Source: a virus (lineage: Duplodnaviria; Heunggongvirae; Uroviricota; Caudoviricetes). From it: a stretch of 38,315 nt of DNA. The stretch lies in the IMG/VR virus record IMGVR_UViG_3300013132_000019, one strand, 5' to 3'. This document shows, one piece after another, positions 1-38,315 of this stretch. A program made the translations under genes and the position numbers. The stretch's first letter is position 1. Every line of letters starts with the position of its first letter. The notes below the pieces were generated by a model, which saw only the letters and a program-made list of their open reading frames with translations, ran no database searches and was not told where the DNA came from.

Positions 1-214
1 CAAAGTCATAATGTTTTTTATGCCCTTTCTTTTCAAACATAAATTGCCTACACACCCCACCTTTTTTACGTATCTCAATATATTGCATAGTTGGGTAAAA
101 TTCAACGCTCATTCCAAGTTCATCTTTATGCCCACACACGTCAATGAAGTTATTTTCTTTATAGTCTGCGGTGATTCGCATTCTTTCTTCTGAGTTTAAT
201 CTTAATTTTGCCAT
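1..214 (-). CDS. Hypothetical protein, partial (runs off the left edge); probable cassette gene
   Basis: Manual translation from ATG at 214: MAKLRLNSEERMRITADYKENNFIDVCGHKDELGMSVEFYPTMQYIEIRKKGGVCRQF..., open to position 1. A-rich leader; same position relative to a hairpin element as the next three genes. Confidence 0.65.
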   Translation of the reverse strand, partial: MAKLRLNSEERMRITADYKENNFIDVCGHKDELGMSVEFYPTMQYIEIRKKGGVCRQFMFEKKGHKKHYDF

Positions 215-228
215 AATTTTTTACAGAT

Positions 229-320
229 TGCTAACATGGTGTATAAGCCATGCCAATTAAAAGCCGTAGTAAATTCGATAGTTCCGAACAGGCACGGCTC
301 ATACACCTGTTCCGTTATCG
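229..320 (+). repeat. attC-like hairpin element 1
   Basis: TGCTAAC(229-235)...GTTATCG(314-320); 17-bp inverted arms GGTGTATAAGCCATGCC (238-254) / GGCACGGCTCATACACC (291-307) with 2 mismatches. Confidence 0.75.
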
Positions 321-325
321 GAAAT

Positions 326-628
326 TCATTTTTCTTCCGACTCCTGCTCAGAAGAAGGTTCTTGCTTTTCAAAATCTTCCCTGATTTTATTTAGTCTTGC
401 AAATTCAGACTCCCAAGCATCCAATGTCATTCCATTTACTGAAATATTTTCAAGTCTATCTCTACCATCACCATCCCAATCAATTACCACTTCTCTACTA
501 CTTCCCATTTGTCCAAGACTTCGTAGTCTTGAAAATAATTCTAATAGCGGTTTTACTGCATCATCAGAACAAGTAAATGAAATGACATTTTGAAAAGCAA
601 TGTTTGGTGTTTTAAATTTTTGTTCCAT
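326..628 (-). CDS. Hypothetical protein (about 100 aa), cassette gene
   Basis: ORF track 326..649 starts at TTG; ATG at 628 (MEQKF) is more likely. Fills the space between elements 1 and 2. Confidence 0.75.
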   Translation of the reverse strand: MEQKFKTPNIAFQNVISFTCSDDAVKPLLELFSRLRSLGQMGSSREVVIDWDGDGRDRLENISVNGMTLDAWESEFARLNKIREDFEKQEPSSEQESEEK

Positions 629-669
629 TTTTAAATTCTTAAATGCCAACCCACGAAAAATGAACTATC

Positions 670-766
670 CGATAACACGGGTTTGGCGTAATGCCACCAG
701 ATAGTTTGTGCCTAAATTTAAAGTTCTTGCAAGGTGGCACTAACGCCAAGCCCGAAACCGTTGTGT
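670..766 (+). repeat. attC-like hairpin element 2
   Basis: CGATAAC(670-676)...GTTGTGT(760-766); arms CGGGTTTGGCGTAATGCCACC / GGTGGCACTAACGCCAAGCCCG with mismatches and one bulged base. Confidence 0.75.
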
Positions 767-773
767 GTAATAG

Positions 774-989
774 CTACGGTTTTACTATCTTGCAACTCCA
801 TCGCCAAAATTTTTGAAGGCTATCAAACCAAATATCAATTTCATCAGCAACCCAACCCTCTCCACCTAATAAGTGTTGAATGTCGTGTTCTTTTGGTTCT
901 AAACCTTCTCCGCTTCCAATGCTTGTACCTTCTGCCCACATTTGGTGTGCTTGGTCAAAAATTTCTGTATGTTCTCTATCTACTGTCAT
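774..989 (-). CDS. Hypothetical protein (71 aa), cassette gene
   Basis: ATG ORF filling the space between elements 2 and 3. Confidence 0.7.
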   Translation of the reverse strand: MTVDREHTEIFDQAHQMWAEGTSIGSGEGLEPKEHDIQHLLGGEGWVADEIDIWFDSLQKFWRWSCKIVKP

Positions 990-1014
990 CTTTCTGTTAT
1001 TAAACCGCTACTAC

Positions 1015-1110
1015 ACACAACAATGTGTATAAGTAATGGCACGTTAAAGTTTGTGGCATAATTCAAAGGTTCGGTGTATGTGCCACTACCCATACACTCG
1101 TCCGTTGTAC
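1015..1110 (+). repeat. attC-like hairpin element 3
   Basis: ACACAAC(1015-1021)...GTTGTAC(1104-1110); 18-bp arms GTGTATAAGTAATGGCAC / GTGCCACTACCCATACAC with 3 mismatches, all G.T pairs on the minus strand. Loop resembles that of element 2 (AGTTTGTG...AATT.AAAG). Confidence 0.75.
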
Positions 1111-1116
1111 ACAATA

Positions 1117-1530
1117 CTACTCTGTGCCTAACCTTTTAAGTTTCTGCACTAAATGTAAAGCAAGGGTCATATACTCTTTAACTTGTTCATTTGTTGGTAG
1201 GTCATAATCGTACTCACTAATCGCTTGAAGAGTATCGCAACCACTACAACTACCGTAATAAGTGTCAGTCATTACATAATCTTCCACACTTGGTTGGTAA
1301 GTGTCAGTAGGCACAATAAATATTTGTGTACCTTGATAATCACCATCATCAATTACAGTCATTTTATCCAAAGCCCATCCGTTATAAGTGGTTGCTTCGG
1401 GTATGCACAATTCAAATATCTTCTTTACAATAGCTTCATAGCTATCGTATTCATCTTGTTTTGTCGTTTTGAAATACTCTTCAAGCTTATGCTTGTTTTC
1501 TTCCCATTGCTTTACTAATTCCGTTATCAT
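1117..1530 (-). CDS. Hypothetical phage protein (137 aa) with YGSCSGCD motif, cassette gene
   Basis: ATG ORF filling the space between elements 3 and 4; DDGDYQG and YYGSCSGCD motifs (possible CxxC metal or redox site). Confidence 0.8.
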   Translation of the reverse strand: MITELVKQWEENKHKLEEYFKTTKQDEYDSYEAIVKKIFELCIPEATTYNGWALDKMTVIDDGDYQGTQIFIVPTDTYQPSVEDYVMTDTYYGSCSGCDTLQAISEYDYDLPTNEQVKEYMTLALHLVQKLKRLGTE

Positions 1531-1563
1531 AATTTTATTTTTAATTCATTAAACCCGTACTGT

Positions 1564-1616
1564 GTACAACACTGTATAAGCCACATTAAAACGATGGCTT
1601 ATACTCACCGTTATGC
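1564..1616 (+). repeat. attC-like hairpin element 4 (short), overlapping the nrdA stop codon
   Basis: GTACAAC(1564-1570)...GTTATGC(1610-1616); perfect 10-bp stem GTATAAGCCA(1574-1583)/TGGCTTATAC(1595-1604). Confidence 0.75.
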
Positions 1617-2225
1617 ACTACAACCAAAACATTCAAATGGACTATCTTTTGGTTTTTCTGGTGTTTCGTTTATTTTTGACGTTGCTAACTTTGTATTTGT
1701 ATCTAATTTTGACTTACTTCTTGTGTAATAAACTCCAGTTTTAAGTCCACCTTTCCAAGCATACATTAAAGCACTGGCAATCTTTGAATACTTAGCATCT
1801 GAGTGATATACATTTAATGATTGTGATTGGTCAACATATTTATTTCTAATTATTGATAGGTCTAATAATACTTTTTGTGGTATCTCCCAAACATCCTTAT
1901 ATCGATATCTAACATCTTCTGGAATTTCCATTATGGTTTGTATACTACCCTTATTAGAAATCACCTTATCAATCATATCAGAATCCCATAAACCCAATTC
2001 AATCAATTCATTTACAAGATACTTATTAACCACTAAGAATTCACCTTGACCAACTCTTCTGGTAAATAGATTAGCTGTAACTGGTTCAAATGATTCAAAA
2101 CTACCTAATAAAATCGCAGAATTATGACTCACACAACCGTTACCTGTTATGTATTCATGAATTTCTGGTACTTCAATGTCCCATGTTGGTTTAACACCAT
2201 TTTCTTTAATACTTTTAATCTTCAT
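1611..2225 (-). CDS. nrdA: Ribonucleotide reductase alpha subunit, C-terminal fragment, preceded by split-intein C part
   Basis: First 35 aa are an intein C part ending SHN, followed by Ser. The rest has ESFEP, DQSQSLN, GLKTGVYY (radical-transfer YY pair) and terminal CFGC (CxxC) of class I RNR alpha. Confidence 0.95.
   Translation of the reverse strand: MKIKSIKENGVKPTWDIEVPEIHEYITGNGCVSHNSAILLGSFESFEPVTANLFTRRVGQGEFLVVNKYLVNELIELGLWDSDMIDKVISNKGSIQTIMEIPEDVRYRYKDVWEIPQKVLLDLSIIRNKYVDQSQSLNVYHSDAKYSKIASALMYAWKGGLKTGVYYTRSKSKLDTNTKLATSKINETPEKPKDSPFECFGCSA
2121..2225 (-). mobile_element. Split intein, C-terminal part (IntC, 35 aa)
   Basis: MKIKSIKENGVKPTWDIEVPEIHEYITGNGCVSHN/S: block F (TWDIEV...H.Y), block G HN, Ser+1. 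Confidence 0.95.
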
Positions 2226-3441
2226 ATATTTTATTTTCTTTTAAAAAATTATTTACTCTTTCTTTATTTATTTCTAATTTATCTGACGACCACAAAGTTA
2301 AAATTTTATACCCATGTTCTTCAGCAATTTTTATTTTATTTTTATCTTTATTTATAAAGTGAATTGCATCTTTTTTACTTCTTTTATGACACCAGTTTTC
2401 CATTAACCAGTCAGTTGAAAACTTCATATAGTTAGGGTGCCATGCTTCTCCATTATATTCTATTATTATTTTTTTACTTTTAATCGCAAAATCATATAAA
2501 TATGGTCTTTTAGTATCAACATCATAAATAACTAACTCATAGTTATTTTCAACACCCATTTTAATATCACCAATTTTATAACCACAATTAATAAGTTTTT
2601 CATAAAAAGGTTTTAAAATCTTTAACGATTCTTTACTAGCCCTACCTATTTTAACAGTTTTACTATTAATTATTTTTTCATATTCTATAGTAGCTTTTTC
2701 AACATCACCATCAAACTTTTTAAGAATTTTTTCAAAAGTAGTTTTAATACTTTTTTTCCTTTCTTTTAAAAGTTTATTGGCTTCGGAAACATTACCATTA
2801 CATTTTTTTAATGCCCATTTATAACTAGTCGAATCTTTAGATTGTGTATAACTCAACCATTTTTTTTCACCAATTTCTTCCCCATATTTATCGATAAACT
2901 TATCATATGTGTGTTTTGATGTTTCTTGAAATTCTTTGAATTTTTCACTTCCTAATTTTTTACCATGTCTCTTTATAAAACCTTTTAATGAAGTTGATTT
3001 TTTGGTTTTATATTCTTTAACCTTTAAAATAGATTCATCGTGTGTATAACCTTTTTTAACCCAATAGTCTATTTTATATGGTGAATTAATAAGTCTTTTT
3101 AAATCTTTTTCTTTAAATAGTTTTACACCTAAATCATTACCATATTTTAATTTATAAAATTCTTCATTAACAACAAATTGGTTATTATTTTTAAATTCGA
3201 TAAATTTAAAATATCTGGCCATATTAAAATCATCAATTTCATTTAAATCATTTGTTATTTTAGTTAAGGTTAAACCGTTATACTTCATAAGAAGTATTCG
3301 ATAAAAAAATAACATATTATTGTCAATCTCTTTATTTAAACCTAAAGTTTTTCTAATAATACATAATTCTTCACCATTTAAGTTTATTTTATCATTCTCT
3401 TTTAGGTATTTAGTAATATTTCGTTTGTAATTAAAATTCAT
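2215..3441 (-). CDS. Free-standing putative homing endonuclease with C-terminal Vsr/DUF559-like PD-(D/E)XK domain
   Basis: Lys-rich 408 aa protein with YG..G..K repeats and C-terminal YDFAI..KKIIIEYNGEAWH...DKNK...GYKILTLWSSD. Lies between the two intein halves and overlaps the IntC start by 11 nt. Confidence 0.85.
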   Translation of the reverse strand: MNFNYKRNITKYLKENDKINLNGEELCIIRKTLGLNKEIDNNMLFFYRILLMKYNGLTLTKITNDLNEIDDFNMARYFKFIEFKNNNQFVVNEEFYKLKYGNDLGVKLFKEKDLKRLINSPYKIDYWVKKGYTHDESILKVKEYKTKKSTSLKGFIKRHGKKLGSEKFKEFQETSKHTYDKFIDKYGEEIGEKKWLSYTQSKDSTSYKWALKKCNGNVSEANKLLKERKKSIKTTFEKILKKFDGDVEKATIEYEKIINSKTVKIGRASKESLKILKPFYEKLINCGYKIGDIKMGVENNYELVIYDVDTKRPYLYDFAIKSKKIIIEYNGEAWHPNYMKFSTDWLMENWCHKRSKKDAIHFINKDKNKIKIAEEHGYKILTLWSSDKLEINKERVNNFLKENKIYED

Positions 3442-3451
3442 ATATAATACG

Positions 3452-3508
3452 TTTTAACAGTTATTATCGTTATTATTATTATTATATAAATATATTTAAC
3501 TGTTAAAA
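3452..3508 (-). promoter_or_regulatory. Hairpin with TATTTATA motif in the loop, upstream of the endonuclease gene
   Basis: Perfect 12-bp inverted repeat TTTTAACAGTTA(3452-3463)/TAACTGTTAAAA(3497-3508) ending 10 nt before the ATG; loop contains TATAAATA (+ strand 3485-3492). Confidence 0.6.
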
Positions 3509-3524
3509 AGTGTTATGCCCACTA

Positions 3525-5507
3525 CTATTTTTCTATAATATCATCATTTTCATTTAACTCATCGGCTCTCAACCAAACCTCTTTACCATCACGATTAACA
3601 AGAAATTTATGATTATGTGTGCATTCAAATATTTCACCATCTTCCATTTCTATTGCTAATGTTTCTACTTTACCGTTATAGATAATATTATGTATATCCC
3701 TATATCCATATCTACTATCGACCTTTAATGGTACTTTTAATTTAAATACTTGTTGTTCATTTAGTGTTTCAATAGTTTCGTAATCAATACCGTTCATTTT
3801 TAAGATATCTTGATATGATAAAACACCCTTATCAGTCTTGATTTTACCTGTAGAAACAAAACAACTTGCAGTCGGCATTAGTCCCAATAAAAGGCTATTG
3901 TACATTGGTATTGGTTCACCCTTTTCATTTGGTGACCAACCATCAATATATGTTTCACCTCTTGAGTATCTACTACCTTCCCATGCTGGATAATTCTCAC
4001 CAGTTTCTTCAGCAATTTTAGAAGATTCAAGTACCGCAGCTTTATACATTGTTTCAAAAATGTCATTATTCCATTGTTTGGCTTCTTCTGATTCATAAGA
4101 TATTTTTTTCTTTGCAAAGAAATCAGCCATACCAGCAACACCGATTGCTAATGCTCTTTGGTTAACACCAGCGTTCTTACTCCATTCATCAGACCACTTA
4201 TTCTTATCAATAACACGATTTAAAGCTCTAACCAGTACTCTGGTACTTTTAGCTATTGATTTCAAATCTGAATGTTCAGCTAAATTTAATGATGCTAATG
4301 TGCATTGCGGTGTGTAATTTGGTTTGCTTGCTTGAAAAATTTCTATGCAAAGATTACTTTGTTTAATAACACCAATATTGTCTTGCATGTTTCTTTTATT
4401 GGCGTTATCTTTGAACATAACATATGGCTTACCACTTTCCACTTGTGATTTAATTATCGCATCAAATATCTTTTTAGGGTTAATTGCTTTACCTATACCC
4501 AATTCAACAGCTTTATTATACTCCATAACAAATTCGTCACCATATAAGTCATATAGTGGTCTTAAACCAGCTTTTTTAATGTCGTTTGGACAGAATATAT
4601 ACCAATCTTCCCCTGATTGTAATTTCTCCATGAATAGGTCATTTATTACAACAGCCGTAAACAAATCTCTAGTTCTTAATTGCTCATCACCAACAGGAAG
4701 TGTTAATTCAAGAAAATCAATGATATCTCTATGCCATACTGATAGATACAAAGCACAACTTCCAGAGCGTGAACCTTGCTTATAGAATCGCATCTTAGAT
4801 TGAACCATATCAGCTAACCTTACCACACCACCAGCTTTACCATTAAAAGAACTTACATAACTATCTTTGCTTCTGATTGGGTCAATAAGTAAACCAATAC
4901 CAGAACCTTCTTTTGAGGCATAAGAAATCTTTGTTAATGTTTCTTCGATTCCTTCAATAGTGTCAGATTCTAAATGAGTCAAGTTGCAGCTAATCATACC
5001 ACCACGTTTTTCTATACCAGCATTGGTATATGTTGGTGTTGCAAAGTTAACCCTTTTTGAATTTAATTCGTCTAATAATTTTCTCTTTTCAATTGGTGTT
5101 TCGGATAAAAATGAAGCTACCCTATTATACATACAAGATGGTAATTCAATTGGTGAATTATCGTCACTCTTCATTGAATATTTGGTTAAGAATGTTGTAG
5201 CACCAAAAAAGTCATAAGTTAGGTCAACCTCTTGTAATTCTTTACCTATTAGTTTTGATTGTCTACTTAACAATATTCTACCACCTAATAATGAATAGTC
5301 TGGGTGTTGGATGATTTTATCAGCAGCTTTGAACGCTATAATTTCATCAACCTCAGTGGTTGTTATATTATCAGAAATTAATGGTATTACCTCCTGAAAT
5401 AATAAATCAGGATTAACGTTTAACCCTTTAGATTGGGTTTTAATTCTAGTCAATATTTTGTTTGGTGCAAAATTTTGTTTCGTACCGTCTCTTTTTACAA
5501 TTTTCAT
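3525..5507 (-). CDS. nrdA: Ribonucleotide reductase class Ia alpha subunit, N-terminal fragment, fused to split-intein N part
   Basis: ATP-cone start (MKIVKRDG), ATPT, ISCNL, QSNLCIEI (catalytic N-x-C-x-E), CTLASLNL and LMPTAS, followed by a 112-aa intein N part and a stop codon. Confidence 0.95.
   Translation of the reverse strand: MKIVKRDGTKQNFAPNKILTRIKTQSKGLNVNPDLLFQEVIPLISDNITTTEVDEIIAFKAADKIIQHPDYSLLGGRILLSRQSKLIGKELQEVDLTYDFFGATTFLTKYSMKSDDNSPIELPSCMYNRVASFLSETPIEKRKLLDELNSKRVNFATPTYTNAGIEKRGGMISCNLTHLESDTIEGIEETLTKISYASKEGSGIGLLIDPIRSKDSYVSSFNGKAGGVVRLADMVQSKMRFYKQGSRSGSCALYLSVWHRDIIDFLELTLPVGDEQLRTRDLFTAVVINDLFMEKLQSGEDWYIFCPNDIKKAGLRPLYDLYGDEFVMEYNKAVELGIGKAINPKKIFDAIIKSQVESGKPYVMFKDNANKRNMQDNIGVIKQSNLCIEIFQASKPNYTPQCTLASLNLAEHSDLKSIAKSTRVLVRALNRVIDKNKWSDEWSKNAGVNQRALAIGVAGMADFFAKKKISYESEEAKQWNNDIFETMYKAAVLESSKIAEETGENYPAWEGSRYSRGETYIDGWSPNEKGEPIPMYNSLLLGLMPTASCFVSTGKIKTDKGVLSYQDILKMNGIDYETIETLNEQQVFKLKVPLKVDSRYGYRDIHNIIYNGKVETLAIEMEDGEIFECTHNHKFLVNRDGKEVWLRADELNENDDIIEK
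3528..3863 (-). mobile_element. Split intein, N-terminal part (IntN, 112 aa)
   Basis: Starts CFVSTGKIKTDKG (block A, Cys1), contains ECTHNHKFLV (block B TxxH) and ends W.RADELNENDDIIEK*. Confidence 0.95.
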
Positions 5508-9541: not shown

Positions 9542-10663
9542 TCAGTTTAAGGTTTGCGCCAAATCTTCTTCAGTTAAACCTTGTTCTTCTTTAACGATTT
9601 CAAAATCATTATAAGGTACATTCAATCGACTTAAAATGAAGTCTCTATGTTTAGATTTATAATCGTTGATTTTATCTGGGTTCCAATATCCGTGTGGCGT
9701 TGAAGCTAACTTACCTTGTTCTTCGATACCATTGACTTGGTTTTTCTCGCACCTAACCTTTGTTTCAATACCAAATTGGTATGTTTCACCACCAGATGTG
9801 GCTTTAAGTTTGCTTGTTGAATGCGTTAGTATACCGCCAAAATGTACGATAACTCTAGCTGAATAGAATAAAGCCTCGCCACCCTTGTGTTTGACTACTT
9901 TATTTTCATTATCCAACCATATTTTTTGAACAACAGCAAGCGTATTGGTAAATTCTTTACCTTCTTTTTTAGAAGCTGGTATTCTATAATTTACCAAAGT
10001 TTTGAAAGCTGATTCCATAGCGCCAGCGTTCCATTGATTATTATTGTTCTTTGATGTTGCTGAACGATAACCGTTTATTGAACCTACAGAATCCCAAAGG
10101 AAACAAAGATTTCTTGGTAGGTCACCATTTTCCTGTGCATCCAATAAATCATTGATTAGTTTAGCAACATCTTCAATTACTGGCTCAAATCTTAACGGTT
10201 TTGTACCCTCTTTACCAGATGAATAATCATAGTTTTGATATCTTTTGACTAAATCATCACCACTGATAAAGATGAAATCACCATCATAATCATAGATTTC
10301 ACCTGTTGACTCGTCAACGATTTCGGTGAATTTTACACCAATATTTTTGGCATGCTCCCAATTCCAGTTACCTTCAGTTTCAATAATCACTGGTAAGTCA
10401 CCAATTTTTTGTGCGCCAGCAACAGCCTCATAAATTGCTGTTGATTTACCAGTATTACTATAACCTCTAAATGCCGTTACATAACCTCTGGCTAAACCTG
10501 GCATTTTTAATGCGTCATGATAGGCTTCTGACATTGGTATCCAAGATATTTCTTTTTCTTTTACCGTTACATCGTAACCATTATTTTTCTTAAATGAATC
10601 TAAATCGAATTTTTTGTTAGCTGTGTTTGTTTCAGAACTTTTTTTAGGTGCTTTTTTAGCCAT
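9542..10663 (-). CDS. uvsX: RecA/UvsX-like recombinase
   Basis: Walker A GYSNTGKS, IETE, Walker B FLWDSVGS, GGEALFYSA and KNQV. Start placed at ATG 10663 (MAKKAPKK) because the longer ORF runs through a terminator hairpin. Confidence 0.88.
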   Translation of the reverse strand: MAKKAPKKSSETNTANKKFDLDSFKKNNGYDVTVKEKEISWIPMSEAYHDALKMPGLARGYVTAFRGYSNTGKSTAIYEAVAGAQKIGDLPVIIETEGNWNWEHAKNIGVKFTEIVDESTGEIYDYDGDFIFISGDDLVKRYQNYDYSSGKEGTKPLRFEPVIEDVAKLINDLLDAQENGDLPRNLCFLWDSVGSINGYRSATSKNNNNQWNAGAMESAFKTLVNYRIPASKKEGKEFTNTLAVVQKIWLDNENKVVKHKGGEALFYSARVIVHFGGILTHSTSKLKATSGGETYQFGIETKVRCEKNQVNGIEEQGKLASTPHGYWNPDKINDYKSKHRDFILSRLNVPYNDFEIVKEEQGLTEEDLAQTLN

Positions 10664-24706: not shown

Positions 24707-27199
24707 TTAGTATCTCGGTATCGGATTTGGTGATAATTTACCACCTGCAAGGTTAGTTCTAAGCTGTTCTTGTATCATAGTTGACAGTTTTCTTACAAAT
24801 TCTGGCTCTCGTGTTAAATCAATATTGGCAACATTTCCACCAGGCATATCTATCGATATCTTACCACCAATTTCAAGCTTTCCGAACTCAATTTTTTGTT
24901 TTTTAACACCTTTACCTTGAACTAATTCATCAATTTTACCCTTATTTGTTGATGCCACAAGACCATCATCCATTGATACAATCTTATCCTGTGGATTGAA
25001 TTTTATGATTGCGTCATCTACAAAATTTGTTGATATCGCGTCACCACCCATCTTACCTAATGCTGAACCAGCCAATGAGCCTATTGCAAACCCAACACCT
25101 GGTATTGGTATCAGTGTTTGACCAATTGCACCACCAATAAGTCCGCCAGCCAATGAACCCGCATCACCAATTGCGGTGTCTTCTAAACCCATAGCTTCAC
25201 TACCTTTACCGCCTAAAAAGTCACCCAAAAAGCCAGCACCTAAACCTGCCGCACCACTTGCCAATTTTGCACCACCAACAGCTAACTTAGTACCAGTTTT
25301 ACCAATTTTTGGTAATAAATTTCTAACCATTTTACCTTTGGTACCCTTACCTAATAGAGTTTTATCTAAAAAAGAATCTTGTAATCCACTTTTACCACCA
25401 GCCTTAGCTACACTATTAAAGCCCATACCCAATTGCACACCTTGAGCATACCATTTAGCGGCATTAAAAAAAACTGTACCACCCAATGCCGTCACTAAAC
25501 TAGCTACAGGGTTTTCAATAATAAACTTACCGATAGAACCTATTAATGTACCGACTTTTTCAGCTAATGATTTAAGATTAGCTAATACATTTTCATTTTT
25601 TAATAATTCTTGTAAATTAGCGATTGGTTGAACCAAAGCAGTATTTAATGCTTCAACAAATGGTAACATCACTGTTTTAAATTGATTAACCAAATTATTA
25701 AAAGCATCATCAAACGTCTGTGCTTGTTTGGCTCTAGCATCTAAGGCTTGTTTTTCATCTTTATATCTTTTAAGCGCATTTGTATCCAATTGATTAAGCA
25801 ACATATCTTGATTATCAATATGTACTCGCCATTGACCATCTTCACCCATTTGTGCCAACGATGATATTAATTGTTTATCATCTTCTTCAAATGTGCTTGG
25901 AACCAATGATTCAATCTTATTGAATTTGGCGGCAGCTTTTGCCATTTCAGATAATTGTTCCTCACTAATACCAGTTATCTTTGCAATCTCTCGCATTCTG
26001 TCCAATTGAAGACCACCAATTTCAAACTCACCAGAATTTTCATTGAATTGCGCCAATTCAGCCGTTGCATTTGCCACATCCTTTGTGAAAGCACCGAAAT
26101 CATTTCTAGCTTTGAACATCAACTCAAATGGGTTACCCAATCTAGCAAAAGACCCACCCATGGTCTGCAATTGTGCCGCCATTTCAACAGCACCCTCTGG
26201 TCTGAATACTTTTCCAGCCATACCAGCTATCGAACCCATATCCACTTTCATTTTTTCAGCGAATACGGCCATCTCAGCCATACCTTTAACACCACCTTTA
26301 AAGTGATACGTATTGGCAATCTTAAGATTCTTACTAAGACCCTTTAACGCTTTTTCAGCATTAACACCCATACTATGTGCAATATCAACAGTCTCTTGAA
26401 CCGCATTTCTTGATGATTCAACACCCAAACCAAAACGCTCCATATCAGCAGCCATTTGAGCAGCACCTTGCATACCCAAAGTTGTACCCTTAGCCATTTC
26501 AGCCATTGCTTGGTATCCAGCCTCAGATAACATTACTGACCTACCTATCTCAGCTGAATATTCAGCTTGTCCTTTAGCCAAATCACTTACACCAACACCC
26601 AACTGTATTGTTGATTCAGAAGCTGTTGAAATTGTCTTTGAAAAGAACTTTGATTGACCATTAAGTATACCCATACTTAATTCAGCAGCTTTAATGTCTT
26701 TTGACATTTGAACCGCTGCCAAATTCTTTAATTTACCATAAAAACTTTGAGCTAGACCTGGTAACTTACTCCAAATTTTACCAGCTTCAACATATGCAAT
26801 ATTAGCTTTATTAGCTTCTTTAGCGATTTGTTGTTGAATTTTTAATTGCTCCTCTAATTTTTTTGTTTGCTTTTTATTGTATTTAACTAAACCTTCGGCT
26901 ACTTTGCTAGCTTTTTTTGCTTCTTTAAGTTTTTGTTTTGCAGCGGCTATAGCTTGGGTATTATTACTATTTTGAAGCGCATTATAAGCCTGTAGAGCTG
27001 CGGCTTCTTCCGCAGCAGACTCACGAGCTTTTTGGTCTAATTCAGCTTGTTGGTCTTTTAATTTTTTTATATTTTGCTCTAAAAGACCAATCTCTTTTAT
27101 TAATTTAAGATATTCAGCCGCACTAGTATTTACTTTATTTTGTAAAGCTTCCTGTTCGGCTAATCTTTTAGCTATATCATCCCAATTATTACTTACCAT
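24707..27199 (-). CDS. Tail tape measure protein
   Basis: 830 aa, Ala/Gly-rich and helical with Gly-rich hydrophobic C-terminal stretches; downstream of tube and chaperone genes. Confidence 0.8.
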   Translation of the reverse strand: MVSNNWDDIAKRLAEQEALQNKVNTSAAEYLKLIKEIGLLEQNIKKLKDQQAELDQKARESAAEEAAALQAYNALQNSNNTQAIAAAKQKLKEAKKASKVAEGLVKYNKKQTKKLEEQLKIQQQIAKEANKANIAYVEAGKIWSKLPGLAQSFYGKLKNLAAVQMSKDIKAAELSMGILNGQSKFFSKTISTASESTIQLGVGVSDLAKGQAEYSAEIGRSVMLSEAGYQAMAEMAKGTTLGMQGAAQMAADMERFGLGVESSRNAVQETVDIAHSMGVNAEKALKGLSKNLKIANTYHFKGGVKGMAEMAVFAEKMKVDMGSIAGMAGKVFRPEGAVEMAAQLQTMGGSFARLGNPFELMFKARNDFGAFTKDVANATAELAQFNENSGEFEIGGLQLDRMREIAKITGISEEQLSEMAKAAAKFNKIESLVPSTFEEDDKQLISSLAQMGEDGQWRVHIDNQDMLLNQLDTNALKRYKDEKQALDARAKQAQTFDDAFNNLVNQFKTVMLPFVEALNTALVQPIANLQELLKNENVLANLKSLAEKVGTLIGSIGKFIIENPVASLVTALGGTVFFNAAKWYAQGVQLGMGFNSVAKAGGKSGLQDSFLDKTLLGKGTKGKMVRNLLPKIGKTGTKLAVGGAKLASGAAGLGAGFLGDFLGGKGSEAMGLEDTAIGDAGSLAGGLIGGAIGQTLIPIPGVGFAIGSLAGSALGKMGGDAISTNFVDDAIIKFNPQDKIVSMDDGLVASTNKGKIDELVQGKGVKKQKIEFGKLEIGGKISIDMPGGNVANIDLTREPEFVRKLSTMIQEQLRTNLAGGKLSPNPIPRY

Positions 27200-27206
27200 A
27201 ACTTAT

Positions 27207-28451
27207 TTAAAAAATATTATTTTTAATGACATTTATTGTAGTTTCTTTAGGTATATGGTTATCAGTATAAACCTCAATACCAAACTTATTACCACCAAGT
27301 TCATTTTTTAATAAGATTTTAACTGTAATAGATTTTTTATTATCTATTTTATACGAATATTTTAAATTTATTTTACCTTTTGATTTTTGAATTTTAGCTT
27401 TAATATCTGAACCACGTCTAAGTAATAGTTTAGATTCGTTTGAACCAGGTCTTGTATTTAAAGTAATATCCTCTAAATATCTAAATTCAACAAATCTATT
27501 ATTGGTAAATTCAGTTCTAATATTATTGACTTCATCGTCATCAGATATAAAACCCTTATCATTTAATATTTGATATACTCTAGACAATCCAGTATAATCA
27601 GCGCCTTCAATAAAACCCAATAGTTTAGGCCTATCAACAAAAAACTTTTTAAGACTAGGGTCTGAATTTATAATATTAAATAACTCTTTCGATGATAATT
27701 TTTCATCTTGATTATCTTCATCATCATCATCAGATTTATCAACCCATTCAGTAACATTATAATCAGTTACATTTACTAACCTATCCGCAATATTATCATC
27801 AACATTAGTTAAATTAATAAATTTATCACCCTCATCTGATTCTTCAATGGCTTCATCATTAAACATTAATTTAAACCGCTTATTGACATCATCTTTATAA
27901 TCTGAATCTTCAGTCTTCATAAGTTGGATAACAGCATAAGCATCTGTTTTTTCGAGAACATTGAAAATAATTTTATCAACATTATCAGTTTCAAAGAAGA
28001 AACCCTCTTCTTCCTTCATTAAAGCTTTTAACCGTTCAATTTCACTTTCTTCTGGATGTTCAACATCCTCACCATCAACTGGAGCCTCATCTTCACCATC
28101 AATGTCTGATGGGTCTTCCAAATCCATTGTTGTAATCCTCTTTAATGTATATGGTCTTTCCTTTTTACTCTTCTTACCTTTTAAAGTTGATTTAATATCA
28201 GCATCACTTACATCCTCGTTCTTTTTAACAACCCAATCAAAACCAGTGAATGTTGAACCCTCGGTTAAACTCTCCAATCTCCAAGAATCACCCAAATCCT
28301 CAACAACCTTGAATTTAAAATCAAAAGGTTCACCGCTCTGTTTACTTTTGGCTGTAATAACAATGATTTTACCTACAGATAAATTCATAAATGGTGACTT
28401 TAAATTCAAAGCCTCCAATAACTGTCTATATTGATTTTCAGTGAGTAGCAT
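27207..28451 (-). CDS. Hypothetical protein (414 aa), probably virion-associated
   Basis: Intact ORF in the tail module with acidic linkers between apparent domains. Confidence 0.8.
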   Translation of the reverse strand: MLLTENQYRQLLEALNLKSPFMNLSVGKIIVITAKSKQSGEPFDFKFKVVEDLGDSWRLESLTEGSTFTGFDWVVKKNEDVSDADIKSTLKGKKSKKERPYTLKRITTMDLEDPSDIDGEDEAPVDGEDVEHPEESEIERLKALMKEEEGFFFETDNVDKIIFNVLEKTDAYAVIQLMKTEDSDYKDDVNKRFKLMFNDEAIEESDEGDKFINLTNVDDNIADRLVNVTDYNVTEWVDKSDDDDEDNQDEKLSSKELFNIINSDPSLKKFFVDRPKLLGFIEGADYTGLSRVYQILNDKGFISDDDEVNNIRTEFTNNRFVEFRYLEDITLNTRPGSNESKLLLRRGSDIKAKIQKSKGKINLKYSYKIDNKKSITVKILLKNELGGNKFGIEVYTDNHIPKETTINVIKNNIF

Positions 28452-35789: not shown

Positions 35790-38315
35790 TTAAATTATTA
35801 CTGTCCAACCTTTTCCAGTAGCAATTGCTGTATTGCAAGTTGAAGAGCCTGGGTTCTGTGACACCGTTATTGTTTGACCTACAACAATTGCCAGATTAGT
35901 AAATATCTCATCGATTGCTGTTGCATCTAAAGCACACTGATTAAATGATACTGACACCTTTATTCCAGTACCTTGCATCCTCCTTAGATTATAGCAACCA
36001 GAGAATGCTGCTGAAAAGTTGGTACCTGAACTCATACTACAAGGTCCTATTTCAGCTAACGCAGAACAACTTCTTACAAATTCTTGCCAACCAGTCACTG
36101 CACCAGTGTTTATCATATCAAGCCTTCTTAACGAGTACATATTTTGGAAAGTCCTATAATTTCCATACGTATCTGTCGATGTTCCAGCAAAGTCTAAAGT
36201 TGGAAGTTCTGTCAATGAATAGCAACTCGTGAATGTTCCTGAGTTTGGTTGACCCCATCTTGTAACTGATGAAAAGTCTAAATTGCCAACCGATACCAAT
36301 GAATAACAGTTCTCAAACATAAATGTATTATTGGTAACATTTGATGTGTCCAATGTAGGAACCACTCTTAGTCCAGAGCAATTCTGAAACATTCCGCTTG
36401 TAAGTGTACAAGCACCCATATCAAACATATAAACTTCAACGAGATTTCTACATCCACTATACATTGAAGACATCTGTGCGCATACGGAGAATGTTCCAAC
36501 CAGATTTTCTTTCAATGATGCGCACCCAGCGAACATTTGAAGTGCTGATAAAATAGAAGTACAAGTTAAATTATTAGGTGGTAATTCTAATGATAGACAA
36601 TTGTAAAACATACTTACACAAGAAGTGGGTGTTCCTGTCAAATTGGCTTTTCTAAGCGAATAGCATTGATTGAACATATTATCACAACTACCAATAATAT
36701 TTGTTATATTCACATTCATCAATGAATATGCTTGATAAAATGCTGATGCCACAACAGCATTTGGAACATTGGCCTCCAGATACCTCAAACCACTACCTTG
36801 AAAAGCATTTGATAATGTAGTTGCATTTGAAAAATCGTGATTGAAATATTCTATATTACCACAATTGATTAATATTGACCCATAACTTCCAGTTATCGGA
36901 GGAACTTCTAAATGTCTTAATGAACGATTGCCACTCATCAATGATAGATAAGACGTTAACCCAGTAGCAATCATCACATACTTTTCAAGCATCCCAAAAA
37001 ACTTATTGGTACCACCGTTGAATTGGTGGAATGATAAATTAGGAACCGATAGTTTAACATCAAGCCACTGTTCCAAATACAGCCACGTTCTACTTGAATG
37101 TCGATATGGAGTAACATCAAATCTTGTTAAAGTCTGACCAGCTTGAGGCGTTATTGTTATGATGACCTGCCTATATCCACGAGTTGAATATGTTGATGAG
37201 CTAATAGAAGAATACGTGTAGGAATGTTCTGCATTCGTATTTGAAGCGTGTGTTGTAACCGTGCCATCACCCCAATCTACCTGATAATTTCCTTGACATC
37301 TGAATGCCACTACATTTGAATCGCTGTCAAATACAGCAAACAAGCCTACTATTTTTTCATCGCCAGGACTTACCAGACTATCAATGTCCAACCAATCCGA
37401 AGGCCTTTCGTATGGACGAACGATAATATTAAGTTGAAATGTTGAAACCACCTCACTGCTACCATTACTAGCCACACACTCAACATCAAACAACCCATAT
37501 AAATACTCGGAAGCCCAATTAAAATTAATACCAGAACCAACATATATACCATCAACATACCAATCAACCGATGTTAATATTGATTCAGATATGGCTGAAA
37601 ATGATACAGTATCACCAAACACAACTGTAGAAGAACTGGAGGTTGCTGATACTGTTAGTGAATCACAGGTTGTTGCGCTTATCGGTTCACCATATGGTGT
37701 TGAATAATTTGTACCATCCGAATCAGTCCAATTGACATCAGGTATAATATAATTTTCAACTGAAGGTATTGTGGTAATTGTTGTACCCGTAGTATTACTT
37801 ATTGTAATATTGGGTAGTTGAAATGTGCTACCAGCAGACGTACTAGCACTGTAGGTGCTACCTGAATTTATAATGGTTACTGGTTGACAGGTGGTAGCTG
37901 TAAATCCAACCATAGCTGGTGTTAACACAGCACTACCATCACTATCATAATTGGTTACATTTGGTAAGGTATAACCACTTTCAGCTGGTACGCTTATACT
38001 AAATGTGTTACCAGAATTGTTTATTGTCGATGCTGATATATAATATGATGTTCCACTAACAGAACCAACACTATTGAATCCATTGGTAATACCGATATTA
38101 ACATCTTCAACCGAAGGTTGTGAATACAATAGTTGACTATTACCATAAACGTTTATATTAGGTAATTGAAAAATTGAACCTGACGGTGTACTAGCTGAAT
38201 ATGTACTACCTGAATTGATTATCGTTACTGGTTGACAAGTAGTAGCGGTGAAACCAACCATAGCTGGTGTTAATACAGCACTACCATCACTATCATAATT
38301 GGTTACATTTGGTAA
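35790..38315 (-). CDS. Tail fibre / receptor-binding-like protein with Ser/Thr-rich repeats, Ig/PKD-like domains and BspA/DUF285-like leucine-rich repeats; 5' end beyond the window
   Basis: Frame is open to 38315; VDWGDGT (PKD-like); many MF..C..L repeats; terminal IATGKGWTV. Confidence 0.75.
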   Translation of the reverse strand, partial: LPNVTNYDSDGSAVLTPAMVGFTATTCQPVTIINSGSTYSASTPSGSIFQLPNINVYGNSQLLYSQPSVEDVNIGITNGFNSVGSVSGTSYYISASTINNSGNTFSISVPAESGYTLPNVTNYDSDGSAVLTPAMVGFTATTCQPVTIINSGSTYSASTSAGSTFQLPNITISNTTGTTITTIPSVENYIIPDVNWTDSDGTNYSTPYGEPISATTCDSLTVSATSSSSTVVFGDTVSFSAISESILTSVDWYVDGIYVGSGINFNWASEYLYGLFDVECVASNGSSEVVSTFQLNIIVRPYERPSDWLDIDSLVSPGDEKIVGLFAVFDSDSNVVAFRCQGNYQVDWGDGTVTTHASNTNAEHSYTYSSISSSTYSTRGYRQVIITITPQAGQTLTRFDVTPYRHSSRTWLYLEQWLDVKLSVPNLSFHQFNGGTNKFFGMLEKYVMIATGLTSYLSLMSGNRSLRHLEVPPITGSYGSILINCGNIEYFNHDFSNATTLSNAFQGSGLRYLEANVPNAVVASAFYQAYSLMNVNITNIIGSCDNMFNQCYSLRKANLTGTPTSCVSMFYNCLSLELPPNNLTCTSILSALQMFAGCASLKENLVGTFSVCAQMSSMYSGCRNLVEVYMFDMGACTLTSGMFQNCSGLRVVPTLDTSNVTNNTFMFENCYSLVSVGNLDFSSVTRWGQPNSGTFTSCYSLTELPTLDFAGTSTDTYGNYRTFQNMYSLRRLDMINTGAVTGWQEFVRSCSALAEIGPCSMSSGTNFSAAFSGCYNLRRMQGTGIKVSVSFNQCALDATAIDEIFTNLAIVVGQTITVSQNPGSSTCNTAIATGKGWTVII
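37806..38315. repeat. Intragenic duplicated module (about 162 bp, offset 348 bp)
   Basis: LPNVTNYDSDGSAVLTPAMVGFTATTCQPVTIINSGSTYSAST...FQLPNI is encoded at about 38154-38315 and 37806-37967, with mostly synonymous differences. Confidence 0.85.

Follow-up and report, generated by a model that had tools for sequence, protein, structure and literature searches.

Integron-like gene cassettes in a T4-like freshwater phage and a site family shared with Bacteroidota chromosomes

A 38,315-nucleotide (nt) stretch of viral DNA (IMG/VR record IMGVR_UViG_3300013132_000019; here termed the window) carries at its left end a row of small open reading frames (ORFs) separated by hairpins. The window represents bases 28120-66434 of a 92.5-kb viral contig from a lake-water metagenome, with a CheckV completeness of 26%. 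We propose, with a probability of about 75%, that window positions 1-1616, together with about 650 bases to the left, hold an array of mobile cassettes, at least five in number and with one gene each, that carry attC-like sites and on which a Xer/IntI-like recombinase acts, located at the nrdA stop codon of a large T4-like freshwater phage. The cassette array is real, obeys integron rules, and shares its site family with Bacteroidota chromosomes; both its sites and its polarity are noncanonical.

Integrons are the textbook gene-capture device of bacteria, and to our knowledge, Bacteroidota and lytic phages are nearly integron-free according to standard detection tools. Here, chained cassettes in a lytic T4-like phage are tied to sites of a family that abounds in the chromosomes of Bacteroidota, where the arrays start beside a Xer-like recombinase that is overlooked by the usual IntI and attC models. 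If this recombinase acts on the sites, integron-type recombination of folded DNA would not need the IntI-specific domain, the hyperplastic regions of phages would possess a defined gene-exchange mechanism, and phages would be trading small accessory genes, methyltransferases included, across unrelated lineages. An earlier note, made from the letters of the window alone, had read the locus as mobile integron-like cassettes moved by a host or phage tyrosine recombinase. Its view of mobility is supported by the sharing of cassettes and by their breakpoints; the candidate enzyme proved to be Xer-like and to score under the IntI cut-off, and the polarity of the phage genes is inverted relative to canonical cassettes.

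Hairpin sites and chained unit ends

Every gene in window positions 1-5500 is encoded on the minus strand. Along the coding direction, the C-terminal nrdA gene comes first, then E4, ORF4, E3, ORF3, E2, ORF2, E1, and ORF1, where E denotes a hairpin site. Past the left edge of the window, E0 and ORF0 come next, and behind them a terminal site that is degenerate, a leader rich in A and T, and a baseplate wedge gene of the gp25 type. The units, at least five with one gene each, lie between nrdA and gp25 (Table 1). The array is anchored by the TAA stop codon of nrdA, which lies inside the first AAC core. Baseplate_J, gp25, and nrdA mark the contig as a T4-like myovirus, and the host probably belongs to the Bacteroidota.

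The four hairpins that the earlier note had placed between single small ORFs were recovered in position, each located between two minus-strand ORFs, with refined plus-strand spans (AAC to GTT) of 233-316 for E1, 674-762 for E2, 1019-1106 for E3, and 1568-1612 for E4. The three complementary end pairs were also exactly as described: GTTATCGGA (position 314) is exactly complementary to TCCGATAAC (668); GTTGTGTGTA (760) is exactly complementary to TACACACAAC (1012), giving 15 bp with one G.T on the minus strand; and GTTGTACACAATAC (1104) matches GTACTGTGTACAAC (1557) at 13 of 14 positions, the mismatch being a G.T wobble on the minus strand. A further element ending in GTTAGCAA had been predicted to the left, and E0 (genome positions 27990-28055), which reads GTACTGTGTATAAC-AA-stem-loop-stem-CAGAC-GTTAGCAA, was found there, its end being complementary to TTGCTAAC on the left of E1. 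Yet another unit lies beyond it, as the left end of E0 pairs at 13 of 14 positions with GTTATACACAATAC at about genome position 27569. Five chained pairs of 8 to 15 bp are present in this genome, and each unit begins with bases complementary to the inverse core of the site it carries. Each unit has the coding-strand layout C-G-hairpin-T-GTT-N(5-11)-ORF-N'(5-11)-AA.

In a hairpin scan of the 92.5-kb contig, the array was the sole cluster of AAC-hairpin-GTT sites; the remaining matches (23, versus 7 to 13 per shuffle) were all isolated and low scoring and were taken to represent the rate in shuffled sequence. A search for AAC...GTT folds by energy accepted far too many sequences and was discarded. 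The cores read GTTRYNN (GTTAT, GTTGT, or GTTAG, then pyrimidine-rich or mixed bases) rather than GTTRRRY, as the earlier note had already remarked, and neither GTTRRRY cores nor the extrahelical L-box bases of canonical attC sites were found. The stems of short-type sites consist of 10 to 12 continuous pairs without bulges (57 copies); instead of by bulges, site asymmetry is provided by spacers of 5 to 6 nt versus 2 to 3 nt and by G.T wobbles. Nearly all stem mismatches are A.C on the plus strand and hence G.T on the coding strand. One such wobble, at position 11 counted from the G of GTT, is conserved in the flank pairs of ORF4, ORF3, and ORF0, the stems of ORF1 and ORF2 being too short to reach this position. 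E1, E3, and E4 have a stem sequence of ∼10 to 12 nt in common, and the stems of E2 and E0 are unlike all others in the array. Because the DNA folding z-scores are modest for E2 to E4 and the E3 hairpin is not the minimum-energy fold under DNA parameters, our case rests on comparative evidence and not on folding energy. Nothing resembling window positions 1-4000 or the E3 hairpin was found in GenBank phage records.

Cassette sharing between phages and the position of breakpoints

Copies of ORF4 occur in four other viral contigs with 92 to 95% identity and in a fifth with 79%. In the ORF4 alignment (A1), the 3' homology stops directly after TAGTATT-N7'-AAC in five of five contexts, and at the 5' boundary, two contigs (L006 and L007) become identical at AAC|G and stay so across the upstream hairpin. 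These breakpoints define the unit on the coding strand as C-G-hairpin-T-GTT-N-leader-ORF-N'-AA, which is equal to the G|TT reading on the plus strand. The flank pairs of ORF4 exist in three compensating versions (GTACACA/TGTGTAC, GTGTGTA/TACACAC, and AGGCGTA/TACGCCT), all of which keep the G.T wobble, and one of the contexts, L006, is a complete 39.6-kb phage with terminal repeats that is unrelated to the phage studied here. The sequence TAGTATTAC at some ORF4 3' flanks resembles the nick site of circovirus Rep, which we judged to be a coincidence.

The ORF2 unit was found in three other contigs (L045, L046, and L047) and in one contig from a lagoon metagenome. In L045 (a 219-kb contig) and L046, homology extends from after AAC| up to CCGATAAC|; L047 has the compensatory flanks GTTAGCGTT/AACGCTAAC and a different hairpin; and the 7-kb lagoon contig matches window positions 312-762 alone. 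The right arm of E3 with its core was present in 29 viral contigs, and about 20 viral contigs have a near-identical E3-type hairpin of ∼95 nt upstream of an ORF, with at least nine different ORFs represented. A 13- to 15-nt complement ending in AAC (..TATTACACACAAC) closes every one of these ORFs, after which the sequences diverge, and the units show single and double compensatory variants; one unit, with an 83-amino-acid (aa) product, occurs in at least four different downstream contexts. E3 has a depth of 80 to 100× in lagoon metagenomes, with contigs diverging directly past CCGTT at position 1106, and the E1 hairpin is present alone in another metagenome contig. In every comparison (ORF4, ORF2, and the 83-aa unit), AAC/GTT is the breakpoint, in line with the GTT breakpoints that the earlier note had foreseen.

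Gene order at this very site also varies between relatives, a further point on which that note had expected mobile cassettes to differ from fixed genes. Between nrdA and gp25, L021 and L022 (92% identity in gp25) have four ORFs that differ from those of the array described here. L023 (gp25 83% identical) has no array: its nrdA end, GCGCTTAA, is followed directly by the gp25 leader, ATAGTTACA. L022 has GCATAACGG in common with the phage studied here, and both array-bearing phages end nrdA at GCATAA|CGG. Homologues of ORF0 (L049 to L052) and distant homologues of ORF4 and ORF2 (L011 to L020 and L048) are ordinary phage genes lacking these flanks and were set aside.

The cargo of E3-type units elsewhere includes N6/N4 and Dam DNA methyltransferases, which fits an anti-restriction role, and one DUF7446 protein. 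In a complete 45-kb phage (L075:7433-7813), a 70-aa ORF lies between the two arms of an E3-type hairpin, with the stem enclosing the whole gene. A 5.7-kb contig binned in a Methanolobus genome (L134) is filled by 14 chained mini-units of 110 to 860 nt; the likeliest explanation is wrong binning of a contig from a phage or from Bacteroidota.

A different account of such exchange would be PeSL-type shuffling, in which the hairpins are conserved promoter/terminator modules and genes are gained and lost by homologous recombination, with no dedicated recombinase. The setting, a hyperplastic region amid core genes of a T4-like phage, is one in which PeSLs are documented (T4-type phages; PMC2839356 and PMC4122927), the stem sequence common to E1, E3, and E4 and the near-identical E3-type hairpin in about 20 contigs could support homologous exchange, and the truncated and nested copies (L004 and L075) resemble products of recombination inside hairpins. 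Yet the exchange points lie at the AAC cores, outside the shared stems, even beside the unrelated hairpins E2 and E0; homologous exchange predicts neither complementary unit ends nor compensatory changes; and the same site family is arrayed beside a recombinase gene in bacterial chromosomes. We therefore consider PeSL-type shuffling very improbable.

The features of the locus are listed in Table 1. Of the five small ORFs, ORF4 corresponds to phrog_12588, and its nearest Atlas cluster is viral and automatically named "Imm6 family," which is a lead only; none of the five had a Pfam match, and ORF1 had neither a Pfam nor a PHROG match. The nrdA gene next to the array (window positions 1611-5507) is split into an N-terminal gene with an intein-like end, a free-standing endonuclease-like gene (2215-3441), and the C-terminal gene, and is uninterrupted in the relatives L022 and L023. 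On the opposite strand, amid the baseplate genes, lies a gene for a 540-aa HNH/homing endonuclease whose C-terminal part is Mom-like (genome positions 25284-26906; L003:15284-16906).

Table 1. Features of the cassette array and its surroundings (window positions unless stated otherwise)
Feature	Position	Strand	Size	Details
ORF0	left of window	minus	115 aa	follows E0 in the coding direction
ORF1, cassette gene	1..214	minus	88 aa	starts at 214 and crosses left window edge; unit ends at E0 (genome 27990-28055)
E1, long-type attC-like site of ORF1 unit	228..322	minus		plus strand: TTGCTAAC-AT-stem-loop-stem-TGTTCC-GTTATCGGA
ORF2 unit	315..760	minus	107 aa	ORF 326-649; site E2 668-769
ORF3 unit	761..1104	minus	71 aa	ORF 774-989; site E3 1012-1117, E3-type long hairpin
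ORF4 unit	1105..1610	minus	137 aa	ORF 1117-1530; site E4 1557-1618, short type, loop TCGTTTTAATG
C-terminal nrdA gene	1611..2225	minus		TAA stop within first AAC core (GCATAA|CGG)

The site family, its recombinase, and gene polarity in Bacteroidota

The 11-nt loop of E4 and E0, TCGTT(T/G)TAATG, is common to sites of the cultured Polaribacter phage P12002L, in which chained complementarity holds too, for example, between GTTAGGCAC and GTGCCTAAC, which flank a methyltransferase gene. The pattern AACGG-N-TCGTTTTAATG-N-TGTT was found in at least 120 bacterial contigs, almost all from Bacteroidota, against a rough chance expectation of ∼27. The bacterial copies have variable stems and a fixed loop. 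The short-type anatomy of the family (AACG, spacer, covarying stem of 10 to 12 bp, loop TCGTTTTAATG, stem, spacer, TGTT) is matched in the array described here. Among 57 bacterial copies, double changes occurred at 12 of 12 stem pairs, with a covariation score of 0.536 compared to 0.175 for shuffled copies, exceeded in 0 of 500 shuffles; the set was restricted to stems of ≥9 bp, which biases the percentage of paired positions and not the variety of pair types. A covariance model built from these bacterial copies only (R1) ranked E4 as its top match (66.3 bits, E value of 1.5e-14) and recovered E0 (54.7 bits, 2.8e-11); E1 was matched weakly (22.9 bits, 0.02, minus strand), and all matches in this phage were on the coding strand. 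R1 also found three sites in P12002L and scored the published P12002L_attC1 site at 55.9 bits.

Chained units are common in bacteria. The GTT side of bacterial sites pairs over ≥9 bp with an AAC located 0.25 to 3 kb downstream in 65 of 117 cases, compared to 18 of 353 control GTTs, and the position-11 G.T wobble was seen across 34 phage and 90 bacterial flank pairs. The site family is attC-like, specific to Bacteroidota and their phages, and barely described. In P12002L, the same ∼75-nt terminal sequence, AAC-AAC-GG-ATAAAACAAG...GTTTGAT, follows the last unit of two separate arrays (L082:29166-29247 and 37200-37304); this sequence is the "attC2" that IntI1 recombined in the study of Qi et al. 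2023 (PMC9892861).

Chaining of whole bacterial arrays led to a recombinase. The chain in Zobellia uliginosa is unbroken across at least 31 units and 35 kb, has stems of 13 to 17 bp with one wobble, and ends 45 nt past the stop codon of a gene for a 375-aa tyrosine recombinase. Postechiella, Maribacter, Lacinutrix, and Pricia have a divergent ORF of ∼125 aa, the recombinase gene, and then the array on the strand of the recombinase. In all five Flavobacteriaceae checked, the array thus starts beside the recombinase gene, and the search of Bacteroidetes genomes that the earlier note had suggested yielded both this adjacency and an abundant site family. The link emerged only from chaining; none of the three best IntI-model matches in five genomes lay within 10 kb of a short-type loop. 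The divergent ∼125-aa ORF has no Pfam match and is conserved before the recombinase gene (L220 to L222, ∼9560-9950, in Maribacter, Lacinutrix, and Pricia). In the Maribacter array (L220:14706-17776), two IS110-family transposase genes lie within units, each flanked by the same TGTTTTGTTTT...AAAACAAAACC pair, a placement reminiscent of insertion sequences that target integron sites. In Flavivirga (G008:C29:215000-230000, L218), six ORFs of 65 to 113 aa within 15 kb around a short-type site match the integron-integrase model in its C-terminal catalytic part only.

The 375-aa enzyme passes the NF040815 model ("site-specific tyrosine recombinase/integron integrase"; 237 bits, cut-off of 220) and fails the IntI model TIGR02249 (207 bits, cut-off of 265). 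It aligns to TIGR02249 and to IntI4 (2A3V) in two pieces, leaving model positions 179-240 unmatched, and the break probably falls at the IntI-specific segment; no classical IntI with this segment was found beside the array of the contig. The closest solved relative of the enzyme is the archaeal XerA. Among phages, a 265-aa recombinase (L223:1177-1974) is encoded by a complete phage of 45 kb that has sites of both the short type and the E3 type. This recombinase shares 41% identity with the Zobellia enzyme, finds its best match in the same family, and lies ∼2 kb from the nearest degenerate sites. Chaining around phage-encoded recombinases (L075, L227, and L228) gave mostly chance-level pairs, and adjacency in phages is therefore loosely supported. 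A single-strand transposase of the HUH type (IS200/IS605 kind) was considered for its logic of hairpin plus guide and set aside, since a tyrosine recombinase adjoins the bacterial arrays; no HUH transposase gene was seen, and no search was aimed at that family. In the literature searched, no description of the Flavobacteriaceae arrays or their recombinase was found; one preprint counts Bacteroidota among the integron-bearing phyla, and another implies that integrons are absent there.

Orientation was defined by the asymmetric cores (AACG at the 5' end and TGTT at the 3' end) together with the wobble. In bacteria, the genes lie opposite to the folding strand in 28 of 31 Zobellia units and in 68 versus 31 units across all bacterial loci, which is the canonical polarity. 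In phages, 36 of 40 units, including all five described here, have the site upstream of a gene that lies on the folding (bottom) strand, in contrast to the canonical layout of a top-strand gene with the site downstream. The folding strand is thus the same in bacteria and phages, and the genes are flipped in phages, which argues that simple capture from host arrays does not account for the phage cassettes.

This polarity also speaks against a passive relic, that is, ordinary integron cassettes taken once from a chromosomal array of the host and now immobile in phages. Decay commonly yields clusters of attC sites without an integrase (CALINs), the contig has no recombinase, and published phage CALINs were interpreted as captured integron parts (Qi et al. 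2023, PMC9892861). However, the same units (92 to 95% aa identity) occur in unrelated phages within different neighborhoods, cassette content differs among close relatives at this very site, the full-length E3-type hairpin was not found among 401 sampled Bacteroidota genomes, and the cargo homologues are phage genes. We accordingly give the relic hardly more than a slight chance. Least probable of all is a feature of the transcript, with hairpins and ORF-enclosing stems acting at the RNA level, for example in processing to stable monocistronic mRNAs, and travelling with the genes: the folding strand is the mRNA strand in the phage units, with all stem mismatches counted here as G.T on the coding strand, whereas in bacteria it is antisense to the genes, so that the structure is not an mRNA feature, and furthermore no T run follows the stems, the invariant AAC/GTT at unit boundaries is left without a reason, and Rfam has no family for the hairpins (sole match IS009, E value of 0.1, far under threshold).

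For the cassette reading, we propose the following mechanism. Each cassette would carry one folded recombination site; the strand that folds best is here the coding (minus) strand, and in the circularized cassette, N'-AAC and GTT-N would close the hairpin into one long stem. In the manner of integron integrases, an NF040815-type Xer/IntI-like tyrosine recombinase would act on this DNA as a folded single strand, at AA|C (equivalent to G|TT on the opposite strand). The gene for it could reside in the chromosome of the host, in a co-infecting phage, or in a portion of the present genome that the contig does not cover. Cassettes would in this way be excised, inserted, and exchanged among unrelated phages. 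The sequences show the anatomy, the covariation, the sharing of cassettes with AAC breakpoints, the place of the sites in the bacterial family, and the association of that family with a recombinase in bacteria, whereas the chemistry, the strand used, and the enzyme acting on the phage are inferred. Sequence comparison supports the proposed mechanism well.

Several observations weigh against recombinase-driven mobility in this phage. The absence of an integrase from the window, already remarked upon in the earlier note, extends to the whole 92.5-kb contig (26% complete), in which neither PF00589 nor tblastn detected a tyrosine recombinase, intact or decayed, and no NF040815-type gene adjoins the array; an enzyme of the host or of a co-infecting phage would therefore be the likeliest agent. 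Searches of P12002L, of two complete phages of 40 kb, and of a 132-kb and a 219-kb contig likewise found no recombinase; a count over five other array-bearing phage records gave four that lack one, three of them being complete. The 375-aa enzyme is 77 to 90% identical across genera and could therefore be a housekeeping Xer protein, with array adjacency having another cause. The outer stem that a hairpin retains within the array is limited to AACG/TGTT, which is poor for a classical attC × attC reaction, and none of the cargo proteins of the window was found in the sampled bacterial arrays. P12002L_attC1 was cloned by Qi et al. 2023 (PMC9892861) and was the only one of six sites that IntI1 did not recombine, with the PH101 sites, of similar layout, being recombined. 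Finally, no recombination event was directly observed: the sequencing runs were kept as assembled contigs, which cannot reveal circles or rare deletions, and the only joints are short and ambiguous. Two joints that skip 221 to 223 nt (776/778 to 1000) were not counted, with the shorter side being 21 to 23 nt in inverted-repeat sequence.

Beyond this locus, it seems an even bet that Bacteroidota phages, from 40-kb to T4-like jumbo phages, have an integron-like exchange network of their own. Its cassettes would use the attC-like sites of the host chromosomal arrays but have their genes on the recombinogenic strand, and would thus form a separate pool instead of being taken from host integrons. 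They would be moved by small Xer-like recombinases lacking the domain usually taken to define integron integrases, ferrying accessory genes such as DNA methyltransferases between unrelated phages.

Comparison with known systems

The nearest published counterpart is the set of CALINs described in virulent phages by Qi et al. 2023 (PMC9892861), where arrays of hairpin sites likewise lie between small genes of lytic phages without an integrase. P12002L_attC1 of that study is a short-type member of the family described here, with the same TCGTTTTAATG loop as E4, and the sites of Pseudoalteromonas phage PH101 have the AAC-GC...T-TGTT layout too. That study gives two predicted sites in P12002L, whereas we found more between minus-strand genes, and the sections of it that were consulted contain no mention of chained complementarity, cross-phage cassette sharing, reversed polarity, or a link to a Bacteroidota recombinase. 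As phage attC clusters were already published, the claim is less new than the earlier note assumed.

With sedentary chromosomal integrons (IntI, attI, and attC arrays such as the Vibrio repeats, the "inverted integrase" group included), the array has in common single-gene cassettes with one imperfect AAC/GTT-bounded hairpin each, the G|TT crossover position, cassettes whose first bases complement the inverse core of the site they carry, uniform site types within a pool, a folding strand bias, and, among bacteria, the placement of long arrays immediately downstream of a gene for a tyrosine recombinase. Unlike theirs, the recombinase here scores under the IntI cut-off, aligns to IntI4 in two pieces, and has XerA as its best structural relative; the cores are GTTRYNN; the outer stem is 9 to 15 bp with a conserved G.T at position 11; short-type stems have no bulged bases; and the phage genes lie on the folding strand. 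The PeSL cassettes of T4-type phages (Arbiol 2010; Comeau 2014) are also small ORFs in hyperplastic regions with conserved stem-loops and have been implicated in gene gain, loss, and replacement. They are thought to act via promoter-terminator homology, whereas the units described here are exchanged at AAC/GTT, have complementary ends, and belong to a site family linked to a bacterial recombinase.

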